Origin: Bacteroidota bacterium
GTDB lineage: Bacteria; Bacteroidota; Bacteroidia; AKYH767-A; OLB10
DNA length: 57,367 nucleotides
Reading direction: 5' to 3'
NCBI GenBank assembly: GCA_947453935.1
Contig: CANGJU010000004.1
Coordinates: forward strand, 1 to 57,367
Part shown: one piece after another, positions 19,569 to 55,018 of the stretch
Layout of the letters: each line of letters starts with the position of its first letter
How positions within the stretch are numbered: position 1 is the stretch's first letter
Program-made: the position numbers and the translations under genes
The notes under the pieces: model-generated
What the model was told of the DNA's origin: nothing
Database searches by the model: none
Seen by the model: the letters and a program-made list of their open reading frames with translations, nothing else

Positions 19569-19919
19569 CAACAAAACCCTGTAGTTTTTACTACAGGGTT
19601 TTTTATTTTCGAGAAAGCCGTATCGGTTCTCCCGATTACTATCGGGACCGATCCCGGGTACAACAAAACCCTGTAGTAAAAACTACAGGGTTTTTTATTT
19701 TCGAGAAAGCCGTATCGGTTCTCCCGATTACTATCGGGACCGATCCCGGGTACAACAAAACCCTGTAGTAACAAACTACAGTCCCGATAACCATCGGGAT
19801 TATTTTCGAGAAAGCCGTATCGGTTCTCCCGATTACTATCGGGACCGATCCCGGATACATCAAAACCCTGTAGTATGCACTCAGTCCCGATAGCTATCGG
19901 GATTTTATTTTCAAGAAAG
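19538..19919 (+). repeat. Tandem array of tRNA-Leu 3' end + terminator units (native copy plus 3 derived copies) containing inserted palindromes
   Basis: AGCCGTATCGGTTC...CCGATCCCGG(G/A)TACA..CAAAACCCTGTAGT...TTTTC(G/A)AGAA recurs at 19538, 19616, 19708 and 19813 (periods 78, 92, 105). Confidence 0.93.
19573..19604 (+). terminator. Intrinsic terminator after tRNA-Leu
   Basis: AAAACCCTGTAGT-tttt-ACTACAGGGTTTTTT. Confidence 0.85.
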
Positions 19920-50060: not shown

Positions 50061-50203
50061 AACTTAAACGTTTGTAAATGCTTATCAACCGAATAATTAT
50101 TCTGAACAAAATAATTTTACTGCGGGGCGGGGCTGCCGTCCCCCCATGGTGTTGAGGCTCCCACTTTTTTGGGACTTCGCTCTACTGGGCCTTCAGGGGT
50201 CGA
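50061..50203. repeat. Non-coding dispersed repeat, copy A (short)
   Basis: Aligns by eye with 52946..53122: AACTTAAACGTTTGTAAAT..CCGAATAATTATT..TAATTTTACTGCGGGGYGGGGCTGCYGTCCCCCCATGGT..TGAGGCTCC..GGACTTCGC..CAGGGGYCG. Confidence 0.9.
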
Positions 50204-50318: not shown

Positions 50319-51941
50319 ATGAAAAAACATCCTTCCGGATTACCATTTCTATTCTTCTCTGAAATGTGGGAACGCTTCGGCTATTATTTAATGATTGGAA
50401 TCTTTACGCTCTACCTCAAAGATGTGAAAGATGGTTTTGCCATGACAGAAGCCGAAGCATCTGATTTATACGGGACCTTTATTGCGTTGGTATTTCTTAC
50501 TCCGTTTTTAGGCGGATTAATAGCAGATCGTTATTTAGGATATTCGCGAGCGGTAGTTATTGGTGGTATTATGATGGGACTTGGTTATTGTCTCATGGGT
50601 ATTCATCATATCACGGCCTTGTATGTTGGTATGACGCTCGTAATTGCTGGTAACGGATTTTTCAAACCGAATATTTCTACGTTGCTCGGTAATATTTATT
50701 CAACGGATGAATATCGAGAGAAAAAAGACGAAGGATATAACATCTTCTACATGGGAATTAATATCGGTGCGTTCATCTGTAACTTCTTTGGTGCTGCTTT
50801 GCAGATTATGCTCGGCTGGGGTTGGGCGTTTATGGCTGCTGGTATAGGTATGTTCATCGGACTCATCGTTTTTACCTCAGGAAAAAAACATTACGAAGGA
50901 TACGATCAGAAAAAAGGATTTCAAGATGGTGATATGCCAATGTCGAAAATTATTGCACTCATACTTTTACCTGCAGTTGTGTTTGGTGTGATAGGATGGA
51001 TGATTCCTGATAATATTTTTGGTAGCGATAGCACCGATGCATTTATTTTAAGTTGTTTGCCGGTTCTTTATTTCTATGCAAACTTGTATTTCACTGCGCC
51101 GAAAGAAGAGAAAGCTCCAATTGGTGCAATGCTTGCTATTTTTGCTGTAGTAATTTTATTCTGGGCAGTATTTAAACAAAACGGATCTGCTCTAAACACA
51201 TGGGCCGATCGTTATACGGATCGTTCGTTAACAGGAACGAGTGAAGTTGTTTTTAATTCATTGAAGCAATCGAAACAATTAACGTATGCAAAAGATTCTG
51301 TGCCTGTTTATGATGAGTACTTCCGATTACAAAAAGAAAATGGCGTTGTTAAGCAAGAATTAAATTACCCAATCTATTTCCGTAACGAAGCGAAAGCAGA
51401 ATTGCCTGCCGAAGGCGAAAAGGTGAGTGTTTGGGCAACTAATTTAAGTCAATCAATTAACCCAGGTTGGGTAATTATGCTCACGCCATTAGTCGTAGCA
51501 TTTTTTACCTGGCTTCGCGGAAGAAAGAAAGAACCTTCTACACCTGCTAAAATAGCCTACGGATTATTTATCTCTGCACTATCAGCCTTAGTGATGGTGG
51601 CTGCAGCAAAAGCGGGTAGCAACGGACAAGAAAAAGTAACGGTATGGTGGCTGATAGCCTGTTACGGTGTAATTACCATTGGTGAATTATTCTTGAGTCC
51701 TATGGGATTAAGTCTCGTTTCTAAATTAAGTCCACCACGAATTACGGCACTCATGATGGGAGGTTGGTTTTTAAGTACATCTATCGGAAATAAATTGAGT
51801 GGCGTACTCGCAAGCATGTGGGATAAATACGAGCAAAAAACAGATTTCTTTATACTGAATTGTGTTTTACTATTGATTGCAACTGCGATTGCCTTCTCAA
51901 TGTTAAAATGGTTAAATAGAATTTTTAAAGAACATACCTAG
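50319..51941 (+). CDS. POT/PTR-family proton-dependent oligopeptide MFS transporter
   Basis: HPSGL..LFFSEMWERFGYY (ExxERF), GNGFFKPNIS, FYMGINIG, GELFLSPMGLS; real start is ATG 50319 because the 50169 extension translates the non-coding repeat. Confidence 0.93.
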   Translation: MKKHPSGLPFLFFSEMWERFGYYLMIGIFTLYLKDVKDGFAMTEAEASDLYGTFIALVFLTPFLGGLIADRYLGYSRAVVIGGIMMGLGYCLMGIHHITALYVGMTLVIAGNGFFKPNISTLLGNIYSTDEYREKKDEGYNIFYMGINIGAFICNFFGAALQIMLGWGWAFMAAGIGMFIGLIVFTSGKKHYEGYDQKKGFQDGDMPMSKIIALILLPAVVFGVIGWMIPDNIFGSDSTDAFILSCLPVLYFYANLYFTAPKEEKAPIGAMLAIFAVVILFWAVFKQNGSALNTWADRYTDRSLTGTSEVVFNSLKQSKQLTYAKDSVPVYDEYFRLQKENGVVKQELNYPIYFRNEAKAELPAEGEKVSVWATNLSQSINPGWVIMLTPLVVAFFTWLRGRKKEPSTPAKIAYGLFISALSALVMVAAAKAGSNGQEKVTVWWLIACYGVITIGELFLSPMGLSLVSKLSPPRITALMMGGWFLSTSIGNKLSGVLASMWDKYEQKTDFFILNCVLLLIATAIAFSMLKWLNRIFKEHT

Positions 51942-51989
51942 TTGAAAATTTACTGTTCTACTTCTTTACTGCTTGATTTAATTTAGAAA

Positions 51990-52784
51990 ATGGATTTTGT
52001 AAATCTGTTCGCTGATTATTCTCCGATAACATTAGTATCGTTGGTGCTATTAGCATTCACAGCGGGATTCATTGATGCAATTGTTGGGGGAGGAGGTTTC
52101 ATTCAGCTGCCTGCATTACTCGTGAATTTTCCGAATACTGCATTGCCTACATTAATGGGTACCAATAAAATTTCAGGATTTTCTGGGACATTCGTTTCTG
52201 CTATTCAATATGGCAAGCGAATAAAATTTGATTACCGACTTTTACTTTATATTTCGATAGTCACATTAATCTTTTCTTACGCAGGCGCAAGTGTTGTCAG
52301 CTATCTAAACTCAGAGCAATTAAAACCAGTCATACTTTTAATTCTGATTGTGATGGCCATTTATACATTCATAAAAAAAGATTTAGGTCAGCTAAAAAGT
52401 AATGAGCTTTCAGAAAAACAAAAACTACTCTACGGATTATTACTAGGAGCTTTTGTTGGATTCTATGATGGATTTTTTGGTCCTGGTGCTGGAAGTTTTT
52501 TAGTGTTAGGCTTTGTTGTGATATTCGGATTCGAGTTTATCATGGCATCGGCCTATTCTAAATTCATTAATTGTGTTTCTAACTTCGGAGCCTTATATGT
52601 TTTTATTTCACAAGGAAATTATCTGATAGAAATTGCAATATTAATGGCAGCATGTAATGTTACTGGGAGTTTAATCGGCACTAAGCTCGCTTTTGCAAGA
52701 GGCAACGGATTTATTCGAATACTTTTTCTCGCAATTGTTTCTTTTTTGATACTTCGCTTTGCGTATGATATCTTTTTGAAATAA
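51990..52784 (+). CDS. TSUP (TauE/SafE) family membrane transporter
   Basis: AGFIDAIVGGGG..QLPAL, GTNK, GFYDGFFGPGAGSF motifs. Confidence 0.9.
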   Translation: MDFVNLFADYSPITLVSLVLLAFTAGFIDAIVGGGGFIQLPALLVNFPNTALPTLMGTNKISGFSGTFVSAIQYGKRIKFDYRLLLYISIVTLIFSYAGASVVSYLNSEQLKPVILLILIVMAIYTFIKKDLGQLKSNELSEKQKLLYGLLLGAFVGFYDGFFGPGAGSFLVLGFVVIFGFEFIMASAYSKFINCVSNFGALYVFISQGNYLIEIAILMAACNVTGSLIGTKLAFARGNGFIRILFLAIVSFLILRFAYDIFLK

Positions 52785-52913
52785 AACGTTGGAGAAAATT
52801 ACATTAATTTCCATTGAAGTTTTTATTAAGCACTTTGAATTCATCATGCAACAATTCAAATGAAAAGGAGGAATATGCGTAACGGATTTTGTGTTTTATT
52901 TTCAAATCTTCAA

Positions 52914-52929
52914 TCCCGATTTATCGGGA
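52914..52929. repeat. REP-like palindrome TCCCGAT-tt-ATCGGGA between 11-bp direct repeats
   Basis: CAAATCTTCAA at 52903-52913 and 52932-52942 flank the palindrome. Confidence 0.75.
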
Positions 52930-52945
52930 GACAAATCTTCAAATC

Positions 52946-53372
52946 AACTTAAACGTTTGTAAATACTTAATAACCGAATAATTATTTTTTGAATTGTAAT
53001 TTTACTGCGGGGTGGGGCTGCTGTCCCCCCATGGTATAGAGAGCCATGAGGCTCCTGCTTTTTTCTGGACTTCGCCTCGCGATTAATCGTGACGAGTCGC
53101 AAGGCTTCACAATCAGGGGCCGTAGTATAGTGGATTAAAAGAAGCACTGAAAAAATAAATTAAATGGCCTCAGTTTATTCGGTTTTTGACGAAGGTAAAA
53201 TTGCGTTAAACAAATTTAGAAGTTCCGAGCCCGTGAGGAAATCACTGAATTTGTAGCAATTTTATCAAGGAAAAAATTTGCAAGTTTTGTATAAAGTGGG
53301 GTGTAGTAGCTTGCTCACTACACCCACTTTTTCTTTGGTTCTTTCATTTTGTATCAAGACAAAAGAAAGAAC
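52946..53372 (+). other. Non-coding dispersed repeat, copy B (long), multi-hairpin structured element; candidate ncRNA or non-autonomous mobile element
   Basis: First ~175 nt homologous to 50061..50203, followed by hairpins at 53194-53266, 53293-53330 and 53338-53372; identity and strand are inferred. Confidence 0.6.
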
Positions 53373-53535
53373 ATGTAGAATGATAAATTAAAAACTTCAA
53401 TTAATGGAGTTGCTATTTATTCCAATCATTAAAATCTCTATAAAATTGTTTGTTTAATAATTGCAAATTACTCGAGAAATAAAAAAGTGCAGAAAGCCTT
53501 CCTCTTAATAGATCAGAAAAAACTATTTGATTAAT

Positions 53536-53566
53536 AAAAAAGCCCCGAAGAAATCCTCGAGGCTTT
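53536..53566 (-). terminator. Intrinsic terminator downstream of citrate synthase
   Basis: Minus strand AAAGCCTCGA-ggatttct-TCGGGGCTTTTTT. Confidence 0.7.
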
Positions 53567-53624
53567 AATTATTAATTGTTTTATTTAAATCGGTTAAAGC
53601 ATTAGCAAATTAACCCATTAGCAA

Positions 53625-53640
53625 TCCCGAGTAATCGGGA
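53625..53640. repeat. REP-like palindrome TCCCGA-gtaa-TCGGGA just 3' of citrate synthase
   Basis: Same arms; embedded in AGCAAATTAA short direct repeats. Confidence 0.7.
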
Positions 53641-53651
53641 AGCAAATTAAA

Positions 53652-54956
53652 TTACCCTTTCTTAATCTGCGCCTTCATCCACTCCGTAGTCACAGAACCT
53701 GGTCTTTCAATCGGATGACCTAATGCACGATCCCATAATAACGATGTCAATACTCCAATTGCACGTGATACACCAAATAATACAGTATAGAAATCATATT
53801 CTACTAATCCGTAGTGAATCAATAAAACACCAGAGTGTGCATCAACGTTTGGCCAAGGATTTTTAATCTTGCCTGTCGATTTTAATATCTCCGGTACTAC
53901 TTCGTATAACATCTGCACGATTTTAAATAATTCGTCGTCTGCTAAATTCTTTTGAGCAAACTCCATCTGTGCAATGTATCTTGGATCGGTCTTTCTTAAT
54001 ACTGCATGTCCGTAACCTGGAACAACACGTCCTGCAGCTAATGTTTGTTTTACATAGTCCGCAATCTCTTCTTTGCTCGGCAAACGTCCTTCGTAATGTT
54101 CGCGTAAGTCGTAAATCCAACGCACTACTTCCTGGTTAGCTAATCCGTGTAAAGGACCCGCTAATCCATTCATACCTGCAGATAATGAGTAGTATGCATC
54201 ACTTAATGCAGATCCCACTAAATGTGTCGTATGTGCGGAAACGTTACCACCTTCATGATCAACGTGGATTGTCAGATATAAACGCATCAACGATTTCATA
54301 CCATCATCATCGAAACCTAACATGTGAGCGAAGTTTGCACCCCAGTCTAATTTCGGATTTGGTTCGATATGAACTCCGTCTTTGTATGTTCTACGATAGA
54401 TGTAAGCGGCAATTCTTGGTAAACGCGCGATGCAATTCATTACATCTTCAAACATCGGATCCCAATATTGCTTTTTGTTGATTCCTTTGCGGTACTCAGC
54501 AGCGAAATTACTTTCCGTTTGCATTGCTAAAATTGCAAGACTAAACTGAGTCATTGGATGTGTTCCCTTCGGAAGAGAATCTAACATATCAAACACATGC
54601 TTAGGTACATGACTTCTACGCGCCCATGCATTGCTTACTTCTCTTGCATCTTCTTCAGTAGGTAACTCGCCAGTTAATAACAAATAAAACATTCCTTCAG
54701 GCAAGTTCTCTCCACCAACTCCTTGCGGTAGCTTTTCGCGTAATTCAGGAATTGAATATCCTCTGAAACGAATACCTTCTTCAGCATCAAGCTTAGAAGT
54801 TTCTGTAACCATTCCAATCATTCCCTTCATTCCGTGATATACTTGCTCAAGTGTATAGCTTCCTAAAACAAGGTCACCATGTTCTTTAATCATGGCTTTC
54901 ACTTCATCTGCAAGTGGTAATGCTTTCTGTGCGAATTTTTCTTTTAACTTATCCAT
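53652..54956 (-). CDS. gltA: Citrate (Si)-synthase, eukaryote-like type
   Basis: ETSKLDAEEGIRFRG, HVDHEGGNVSAH, GLAGPLHGLANQEV, VVPGYGHAVLRKTDPRY, NPWPNVDAHSG. Confidence 0.95.
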   Translation of the reverse strand: MDKLKEKFAQKALPLADEVKAMIKEHGDLVLGSYTLEQVYHGMKGMIGMVTETSKLDAEEGIRFRGYSIPELREKLPQGVGGENLPEGMFYLLLTGELPTEEDAREVSNAWARRSHVPKHVFDMLDSLPKGTHPMTQFSLAILAMQTESNFAAEYRKGINKKQYWDPMFEDVMNCIARLPRIAAYIYRRTYKDGVHIEPNPKLDWGANFAHMLGFDDDGMKSLMRLYLTIHVDHEGGNVSAHTTHLVGSALSDAYYSLSAGMNGLAGPLHGLANQEVVRWIYDLREHYEGRLPSKEEIADYVKQTLAAGRVVPGYGHAVLRKTDPRYIAQMEFAQKNLADDELFKIVQMLYEVVPEILKSTGKIKNPWPNVDAHSGVLLIHYGLVEYDFYTVLFGVSRAIGVLTSLLWDRALGHPIERPGSVTTEWMKAQIKKG

Positions 54957-55018
54957 TGTATGTATTGCAAAAGGTATTATAAAATTTGTTTGGCGAATTT
55001 AATCATTTAGGTAACACT

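Follow-up and report, generated by a model that had tools for sequence, protein, structure and literature searches.

A hairpin-rich intergenic stretch of a Bacteroidota genome is a chimera of two lineage-specific, non-coding repeat families

What is a stretch of DNA that is packed with hairpins and seems to encode no protein? This question is raised by positions 52946-53372 of a 57,367-nt stretch of a Bacteroidota bacterium (GenBank assembly GCA_947453935.1, contig CANGJU010000004.1), which is called the window below. The original prediction, made from the letters alone, took these positions for a single element of about 430 nt, either a new non-coding RNA or a non-autonomous mobile element. 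We find instead that the flagged stretch is a chimera of two non-coding, lineage-specific repeat families, a promoter-like cassette (module A) and module B, which is the 3′ half of a longer unit termed X-B, and that it represents a real new repeat and RNA family. The comparisons described here establish that the repeat families exist, how they are distributed and that they covary, on which strand B folds, and that orthologous loci show gain, loss and inversion of copies. It is uncommon for an RNA fold of more than 200 nt to be supported by covariation and yet match no curated family, and here the fold includes a pseudoknot. Additionally, the family is caught in gain, loss, inversion and module swapping among sister genomes of an abundant uncultured freshwater lineage.

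Two repeat families in one spacer

The spacer was compared by BLAST with its own genome (2.23 Mb in 203 contigs, 80% complete; the window contig is C4 in our numbering). The search returned 31 further matches, more than the partial copies noticed at first. For the A region (about 52925-53080), 23 more segments turned up at 22 places. The B region (53150-53380) has three further full copies (80-84% identical) and one 39-nt fragment. No other own-genome copy was found by BLAST for the filler between them (53065-53165), and the 277 nt after B gave one weak match (E 2.7e-4). Because A and B recur separately and the filler has no own-genome copy, we read the stretch as two families and not as one element. 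Its left edge, at 52946, cuts through the upstream part of module A.

Further copies were collected from a genus set of 12 genomes, comprising this genome and 11 sisters. The boundaries of B are sharp at both ends, starting at GGCCTCAG (53166) and ending at ..AAAGAAAGAAC (53372) in 39 out of 39 copies. Conservation halts exactly after GAAC, and unrelated sequence follows in these copies. At least 14 B copies form the 3′ half of a longer unit of about 436-460 nt in total, which consists of X (about 211 nt), an AT-rich linker of 25-45 nt and B. There are 26 distinct copies of X; 13 run into an intact B start and several others into truncated B stumps. Of X, the window retains just the initial ~25 nt (53041-53064), which are joined on behind A and followed by the filler and then by B. 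The filler (plus strand) stands in place of the X body and includes a CTTCG..CAGGGGCCG mini-repeat as well as an A-rich stretch that leads into B; a homologue precedes B in the sister genomes G006 and G010. The same order of A, X remnant, filler and B is found at the orthologous site of G010 and at another locus shared by G011 and G006, and a complete A-X-B unit lies on contig C2 of the own genome.

The stretch had been described as lacking a credible open reading frame, and we agree. Just two GTG-started minus-strand frames (67 and 42 aa) overlap it, at 52944-53147. A coding reading of B was also rejected: the ATG of a 30-codon plus-strand frame at the B start is absent in two of the four own-genome copies, and indels in the hairpin loops are not multiples of three. 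That no known RNA family is present was also borne out, as an Rfam 15 scan found nothing at gathering score in the flagged stretch. In the whole window just two tRNAs, located elsewhere, reach gathering score. At E values up to 10 the spacer gave chance-level matches only, the lowest E value being that of U2 (E 0.037, with 22.5 bits where the gathering score is 46). Six full X-B loci matched nothing in Rfam save an unrelated RNase P RNA in one flank. Identity with tmRNA, RNase P, a riboswitch, a ribozyme or 6S RNA thus has no Rfam support. For 6S RNA, which is a rod with a large central bubble, one or two copies per genome would be expected, whereas B gives 1-12 matches per genome at E<=0.01. 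An RNase P RNA gene (class A, 131 bits; L078:1569-1794) lies about 400 nt from an X-B copy, a link that is probably incidental.

Structure and covariation of B and X

Every hairpin named at the outset was found by reading the plus strand. A GAGCC/GGCTC hairpin followed by a T-run lies at 53041-53064. In the long stem, GGTAAAATTGC (53194-53204) pairs with GCAATTTTATC (53256-53266) and ACAAATTTAG (53210-53219) pairs with CTGAATTTGT (53245-53254), and a TTCC/GGAA pairing lies within 53223-53240. Further downstream, AAAGTGGGGTGTAGT (53293-53307) pairs with ACTACACCCACTTT (53317-53330). The plus strand of the flagged stretch folds with a predicted energy of -125.1 kcal/mol, compared to -99.1 kcal/mol (standard deviation 5.5) for shuffled sequences (z -4.73); none of 100 shuffles folded as well. 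The minus strand reaches -102.8 kcal/mol (z -3.25).

Alignment of 39 copies divides B (53166-53372, plus strand, 207 nt) into three parts: a rod of 133 nt, a terminator hairpin and, last, the terminal hairpin. The rod (53166-53298) is an irregular hairpin of four nested helices with the apical loop GAGCCCGTGA, and it is found by the covariance model R1 with 153 bits (E 4e-36). It is followed by a hairpin of 15 bp with a 9-nt loop that runs directly into the T-run of TTTTTCTTT (53293-53338, plus strand), as in an intrinsic terminator. The terminator scan did not list this hairpin, since its limit is 8 loop bases. This site is variable: other B copies carry no hairpin there, a CCCGAT..ATCGGG hairpin, or a hairpin of the window type. 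At a third locus compared between species, orthologous B copies differ in the hairpin at exactly this site. The terminal hairpin GGTTCTTTCATTTTGT..ACAAAAGAAAGAAC (53337-53372, plus strand) forms the sharp 3′ end of B.

A covariance model of B, proposed earlier as a test, found many homologues, and covariation in both B and X goes beyond that of shuffled controls. In 38 copies of the B rod, 98.5% of the cells of the 32 pairs are paired, and 11 pairs have changed on both sides, compared to 1.6 (standard deviation 1.1) in shuffles (0/500 as many) and 1-4 when the partners were slid against each other. The rod is also strongly conserved, with 66 invariant and 45 nearly invariant positions among 133. 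For X, 50 pairs were predicted, and 96.0% of their cells are paired. Changes on both sides were seen in 20 pairs and 79 cells, compared to 10.3 and 18.1 in shuffles (0/500), and in 2-10 pairs when slid. At the 5′ end of X a 4-bp stem (NNAC..GTNN) interlocks with AGCC/GGCT to form an H-type pseudoknot. This stem is fully paired in all 23 copies that could be parsed (26 were examined) and occurs in five sequence versions.

B folds on the plus strand. The plus strand folds better in 38/38 rods and in 39/39 full copies, with consensus energies of -23.4 versus -11.0. Where helices are predicted on both strands, 14 G-U pairs stand against 4 A-C mismatches. The G-U bias noted earlier for the plus strand of the long stem holds across 38 copies: two positions have G-U invariably, and three others commonly have it.

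The promoter-like module A

Module A (52949-53064, plus strand) was delimited from aligned copies and consists of a promoter-like box, a GC hairpin, and a hairpin with a T-run. Housekeeping promoters of Bacteroidetes have the consensus TTTG at -33 and TAnnTTTG at -7, set 19-21 nt apart. The box of A (52949-52988) carries TTTG at 52956-52959, a spacing of 19 nt and then TAATTATT at 52979-52986; it is conserved in all aligned A copies, and two of its last four -7 positions deviate from TAnnTTTG. A second -7-like motif, TAATTTTAC (52997-53005, plus strand), is shared by the aligned copies as well. In the GC hairpin GCGGGGTGGGGCTGCTGTCCCCCC (53007-53030, plus strand) the stems are near-invariant and variation lies mostly in the loop. 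After it the aligned copies share CCATGG, with a T-run a few bases on. The last part of the module, the hairpin GAGCC-ATGA-GGCTC followed by CTGCTTTTTT (53041-53064, plus strand), was flagged by the terminator scan; it is a GC-containing hairpin followed by a T-run, as expected of an intrinsic terminator. By alignment this same segment is homologous to the start of X over ~25 nt, corresponding to stem 2 of the pseudoknot and the 5′ arm of helix P2.

The box of A also precedes ordinary genes on its own, for example a purK-like open reading frame on contig C25. It contains a AAACGTTT core that recurs upstream of ordinary genes, and a loose regular expression for it gave 54 sites genome-wide. Full A copies were found upstream of genes for a POT transporter, a seryl-tRNA-synthetase-like, a 2OG-oxygenase-like and a ComEC-like protein, often two or three in tandem. 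A second copy in the window (50061-50180, plus strand), 79% identical to 52946-53075, stands directly upstream of the gene for the POT-family transporter (assigned by Pfam). At position 2143-3330 of contig C80 in the own genome, three tandem units of about 320-440 nt each contain module A, TCAAAT-type heptads and a GACCCGTCCTAAAAAAG motif. These units occupy the divergent spacer between a rhomboid-like and a ComEC-like gene, and a fourth, promoter-only copy abuts a gene.

Distribution among related genomes

The B rod model gave 42 strong matches in 10 of the 12 genomes of the genus, with 1-12 per positive genome at E<=0.01, and no match in an outgroup of 71 genomes from 22 other genera. The hairpin core of A shows the same pattern. 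It occurs 14 times in the own genome and 1-17 times in nine of the 11 sisters, the same nine that carry B, and it is likewise absent from the 71 outgroup genomes. By BLAST, X is present in all 11 sisters and in none of the other genera. The two members without B and the A core, G003 and G004, carry a diverged X subfamily (67-70% identical; L135-L138) whose conservation extends past both X ends, and for this reason the sequences suggest that X is older than A and B.

A plasmid origin was rejected, as X-B has no BLAST match among 72,556 plasmid records. A phage origin was rejected likewise: the window element has no BLAST match among 50,697 phage records, and viral contigs contain no exact motif match. 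Exact matches to one 22-mer of the element came only from records of metagenome-assembled genomes of uncultured Bacteroidota, some of them labelled Chitinophaga pinensis.

Four riverine metatranscriptomes hold 5-6% of the sampled words of the region. Metatranscriptome contigs on 51000-55000 stem mainly from the citrate synthase gene of relatives. Weak traces lie at 53010-53143 (depths 0.47 and 0.89), and apart from the trace over B that is weighed below, the remaining spacer is uncovered. This coverage neither shows nor excludes transcription of the element.

Gain, loss and possible exchange at orthologous loci

All four orientation classes occur among the 52 copies inspected, whose spacers separate unrelated genes, and 5/52 overlap a mechanically called open frame of at least 90 codons. 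The mobility suspected earlier fits the gain, loss and inversion seen at orthologous loci. In the window, the spacer of 867 nt (52785-53651) lies between two convergent genes assigned by Pfam, a TauE/SafE-type gene on the left (51990-52784, plus strand) and a citrate synthase gene on the right (53652-54956, minus strand). Between these genes stands a two-way ancestral terminator (53537-53566, both directions; flagged by the scan on the minus strand). It is retained in the empty spacer of G011, which comprises just 42 nt and this shared terminator. In G010, A, B and a 160-nt tail are inserted immediately before the terminator. This tail (53373-53532, strand unassigned) is unique sequence that travels with the A-B block, being 99% identical in G010 and absent in G011. 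G006 carries B alone, between two terminator copies. In G007 and G003 the spacer is short and lacks A and B. At a second locus, G008, G009 and G013 carry X-B on the plus strand and G006 carries it inverted; there is none in G003, G004, G010, G011 and G012, and a remnant in G000 and G007, while G005 could not be assessed.

Identities across the window locus are uneven. Compared to G010, the A hairpin is 99% identical, the filler 96%, the B rod 95%, the terminal hairpin 100% and the tail 99%. The flanking genes, at 90% and 82%, fall below the block. The terminator-hairpin segment is only 49% identical, and G010 carries a different hairpin there. The orthologous copies of G008 and G013 are 99% identical in the B rod (132/134) and 100% in the B 3′ end, whereas the neighbouring spacers are 70-76% identical; compared to its closer relative G009, the G008 rod is 96% identical (128/134) and the spacers are 99-100% identical. 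Besides constraint, this mix of identities points to exchange or conversion in recent times.

With respect to MITEs, miniature elements that derive from DDE transposons and are bounded by inverted repeats, the copies are short, non-coding, multi-copy and polymorphic between relatives. In alignments, although no formal search for terminal inverted repeats was made, one end of B does not repeat the other in inverted form, and the same holds for X-B; by eye, a weak T-rich likeness was noticed upstream of X. No shared flank indicating a target-site duplication was seen in about ten X-B copies and five near-identical B copies. An AAAAAG repeat does bracket the G010 block, but it is part of a duplicated terminator-proximal stretch. 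The original prediction had also raised a consistently linked HUH transposase, reverse transcriptase or recombinase, and this did not hold: none was found across the 52 copies, nor did any consistent effector neighbour emerge.

What the modules may be

We give about an even chance to the explanation that the modules form a mobile-like family of non-coding RNA genes, in which A is a promoter with a leaky stop, B an RNA rod with its own terminator, and the window copy a decayed chimera. The modules would behave as mobile DNA and would be selected to fold as RNA. A would supply a promoter of the Bacteroidetes type, a GC-clamp hairpin and a leaky hairpin/T-run stop, and B would be a plus-strand RNA rod that ends in an intrinsic terminator of its own and the terminal hairpin. 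At the window locus A most likely fires rightwards to yield a free-standing non-coding transcript, whose predicted length is about 70 nt with a stop at 53064 and about 345 nt with read-through to ~53338. Within one genus, duplicative insertion or recombination may have carried the modules into AT-rich spacers next to terminators, and they would decay by internal deletion, by which the window copy appears to have been stripped of nearly all X. Promoter activity, transcripts, the mode of spreading and any cellular role of the RNA are what we infer.

Several observations weigh against this explanation. The first group concerns X and transcription. The minus strand of X folds better in 25/26 copies (consensus -45.5 versus -34.9), and on the plus strand it shows 15 A-C against 3 G-U, which sits badly with a single plus-strand X-B RNA. 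Transcripts of X and B may come from opposite strands, or a strand bias in mutation may imitate such a signal. The position of A upstream of B or X-B in the same orientation at three loci (window/G010; G011:C34/G006:C78; G000:C2/G013:C130/G009:C117), on the other hand, favours plus-strand transcription through at least those copies. A search by eye and regular expression for promoter motifs that would serve B alone or the X minus strand gave only AT-rich near-matches. The further pair types in X, 32 compared to 30.1 in shuffles (130/500), are not above chance, and the shuffle controls overstate the support from covariation in general, since the copies are related to each other. The promoter of A is a candidate that matches a consensus and no more. 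The RNA-library trace over B is one 178-nt contig (53165-53281, depth 2.2) from a library that may hold DNA.

The second group concerns mobility. The G010 insertion is bracketed by a diverged duplicate of terminator-proximal sequence, which speaks for recombination rather than clean transposition. As no terminal inverted repeat, duplication or linked enzyme was found, the word mobile rests on patterns of presence and absence, and recombination between spacers could give the same patterns. Finally, many copies consist of X only, with truncated B stumps, and decaying selfish DNA would look alike.

A somewhat unlikely alternative is that the copies are ordinary chromosomal paralogues of a small RNA with a cellular function, for example protein-binding or regulatory, whose number varies through duplication and loss and not through mobility. 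In its favour, the loops of B are strongly conserved along with the stems (66 and 45 of 133 positions), B and X covary, the element has its own terminator, and the promoter cassette stands upstream at three loci. The near-identity of the B rods of G008 and G013 amid diverged spacers fits as well. However, the same G008 rod is nearer to G013 (132/134) than to the closer relative G009 (128/134), which suggests exchange between copies. Moreover, copy number ranges from 1 to 12, the loci are not common to sister species, B and the A core are absent from two members of the genus, and there are truncated stumps and a copy that is inverted in the same spacer.

It seems quite unlikely that the modules are instead single-stranded-DNA hairpins, that is, elements resembling repetitive extragenic palindromes (REPs) or PATEs that are moved by an HUH transposase (Y1, RAYT/IS200-like) of the genome. 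As in REP/RAYT and IS200/IS605 systems, no terminal inverted repeat and no duplication was seen, the hairpins are strand-specific, and one of them is terminal at the 3′ end. Y1 transposase genes number 2-4 per genome in five of five genomes tested, CCCGA..TCGGG hairpins that are about 18-fold over-represented in the genome have been inserted in variable loops of A and B, and the opposite strand signals of X and B are left unexplained by RNA from one strand. The Y1 genes themselves argue otherwise. The own genome has three intact ones (IS200/RAYT-like; C129:2943-3287, C167:859-1200 and C1:39675-40019), which look single-copy and have orthologues in the sister genomes. Arrays of a separate hairpin family flank each gene, and none of these hairpins resembles the ends of A, X or B. 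In addition, the two ends of X-B carry unlike hairpins, and we know of no REP or IS200 ends with long-range helices or a covarying pseudoknot. A retron can be set aside too, since RVT_1 was detected in only two of five genomes, as one gene each that adjoins no copy.

A similarly small chance goes to a passive by-product, with hairpins that terminate, insulate or stabilise mRNA piling up in long spacers and giving no product of their own. The location between convergent genes beside a two-way terminator, the two terminator-like hairpins inside the stretch, and the hypervariable spacers of the genus, packed with small repeats, would fit such a process. Yet copies are also found in divergent and tandem gene contexts, the ancestral terminator has been kept beside the insertion, and a 133-nt rod with conserved internal loops together with a 211-nt multi-helix pseudoknot domain goes far beyond what termination needs.

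A guide-type RNA acting in trans (resembling omega-RNA, tracrRNA or the guide RNA of dCas12f), with the variable DNA past the 3′ end as guide, is extremely improbable: the sharp 3′ boundary of a structured scaffold followed by unrelated sequence in every copy does recall the RNAs with 3′ guides of the same phylum that are described in the part of PMC13472631 available to us, but the dCas12f-sigmaE guide RNAs given there measure 85-105 nt and lie directly downstream of dcas12f, whereas B measures 207 nt and is dispersed, no effector gene adjoins any of the 52 copies, and PF07282 (TnpB/Cas12f zinc ribbon), the sole domain model searched, was found in 0/5 genus genomes.

A shared 3′ module in other genera

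The terminal hairpin had been thought to resemble dispersed repeats of other bacteria, and it does recur, dispersed, in six other genera of the same family. Sites there are matched by the final ~45 nt of B (CTTTTTCTTTGG and the hairpin) and, among the copies inspected, mostly lie downstream of a different, undescribed rod, termed R; elsewhere the upstream sequence differs. A pattern search for the hairpin with at most one mismatch, which was too strict, found it only with the four own-genome B copies and once in one of four other genera. Like B, R is a multi-copy rod hairpin with plus-strand G-U pairs, followed by CTTTTCTTTGG and a near-identical terminal hairpin. Unlike B, its rod sequence is unrelated save for a shared GAGCCTGTG in the apical region, and the B model matches no R. 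Compensatory changes were seen in 14/48 pairs across seven R copies. R (GTGCG..GTGCGAAC..GTTGG..) was noticed in L041, L042, L043, L044, L050 and L060. Of ten loci taken from these genera, eight of which contain R copies, none matched Rfam at E values up to 0.001.

Given this shared 3′ module, the sequences suggest that the phenomenon is wider than the genus. It is conceivable, though unlikely, that a family-wide class of self-propagating non-coding RNA genes exists. Its members would combine a lineage-specific RNA (B and X here, R elsewhere) with the shared 3′ module (CTTTTCTTTGG and the hairpin) and sometimes a promoter of their own, and the RNA would partner a protein machine that copies the element, with X and B possibly forming two divergent RNAs. 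Should the RNA have a protein partner, a new RNA-protein system may be at hand; the family could also show non-coding genes spreading in a new way. Even as mere selfish DNA it would remain useful for tracking spacer turnover, and it would caution annotators, since cassette A is found upstream of ordinary genes.

Comparison with known systems

Modular interspersed intergenic repeats are represented by BIME/REP in E. coli, BOX in pneumococcus and Correia elements in Neisseria. Like the modules studied here, these repeats are short, non-coding, multi-copy and confined to spacers, their modules occur alone or combined, they are rich in hairpins and sometimes carry promoters or terminators, and they vary between close relatives. 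X-B differs in its length of about 440 nt, its long-range helices, pseudoknot and covariation, its restriction to one genus, and in that neither terminal inverted repeats nor a matching transposase were found. Qrr, PrrF and LhrC are multi-copy small RNA families of about 100 nt that occupy fixed syntenic loci. They resemble B and X-B in having several paralogues with a promoter, an intrinsic terminator and a conserved sequence and fold, but the loci of X-B and B differ between sister species, and their copies are truncated, inverted and nested with other repeats.

Within the phylum, a MITE that contains a minisatellite has been described in Porphyromonas gingivalis (PMC4596501). Compared by the description in the part of that source available to us, it is likewise a non-autonomous intergenic repeat of Bacteroidota with internal repeat structure, but it is an inverted-repeat element, and no terminal inverted repeat was seen here. 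A description of an element such as X-B was not found in the literature searched, which comprised articles outside their supplementary files.

Small repeats in the spacer and the genome

GTAGT..ACTAC hairpins are not enriched in the genome (26 compared to 42 in a shuffled genome). Mini-hairpins of the form CCCGA-N3-12-TCGGG, in contrast, gave 106 hits on both strands of the genome, compared to 6 in a shuffled genome (the ~18-fold excess cited above). One of them, hp1 (TCCCGA..TCGGG, 52914-52929, strand unassigned, coordinates read from the sequence), is a REP-like dispersed repeat that flanks the block. Further sites in the window lie at 19631-19886, 53625-53640 and 50244, and a five-copy array follows two tRNA genes. 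A ~22-nt CGCTTCGAGAGCCTCAGCGACC motif, tandem and inverted, occupies the spacers G011:C19 and G012:C9 (L157 and L158) that hold X-B in other species. Insertions of a related motif are found in the filler of the window and, in some X copies, in the loop of P2.

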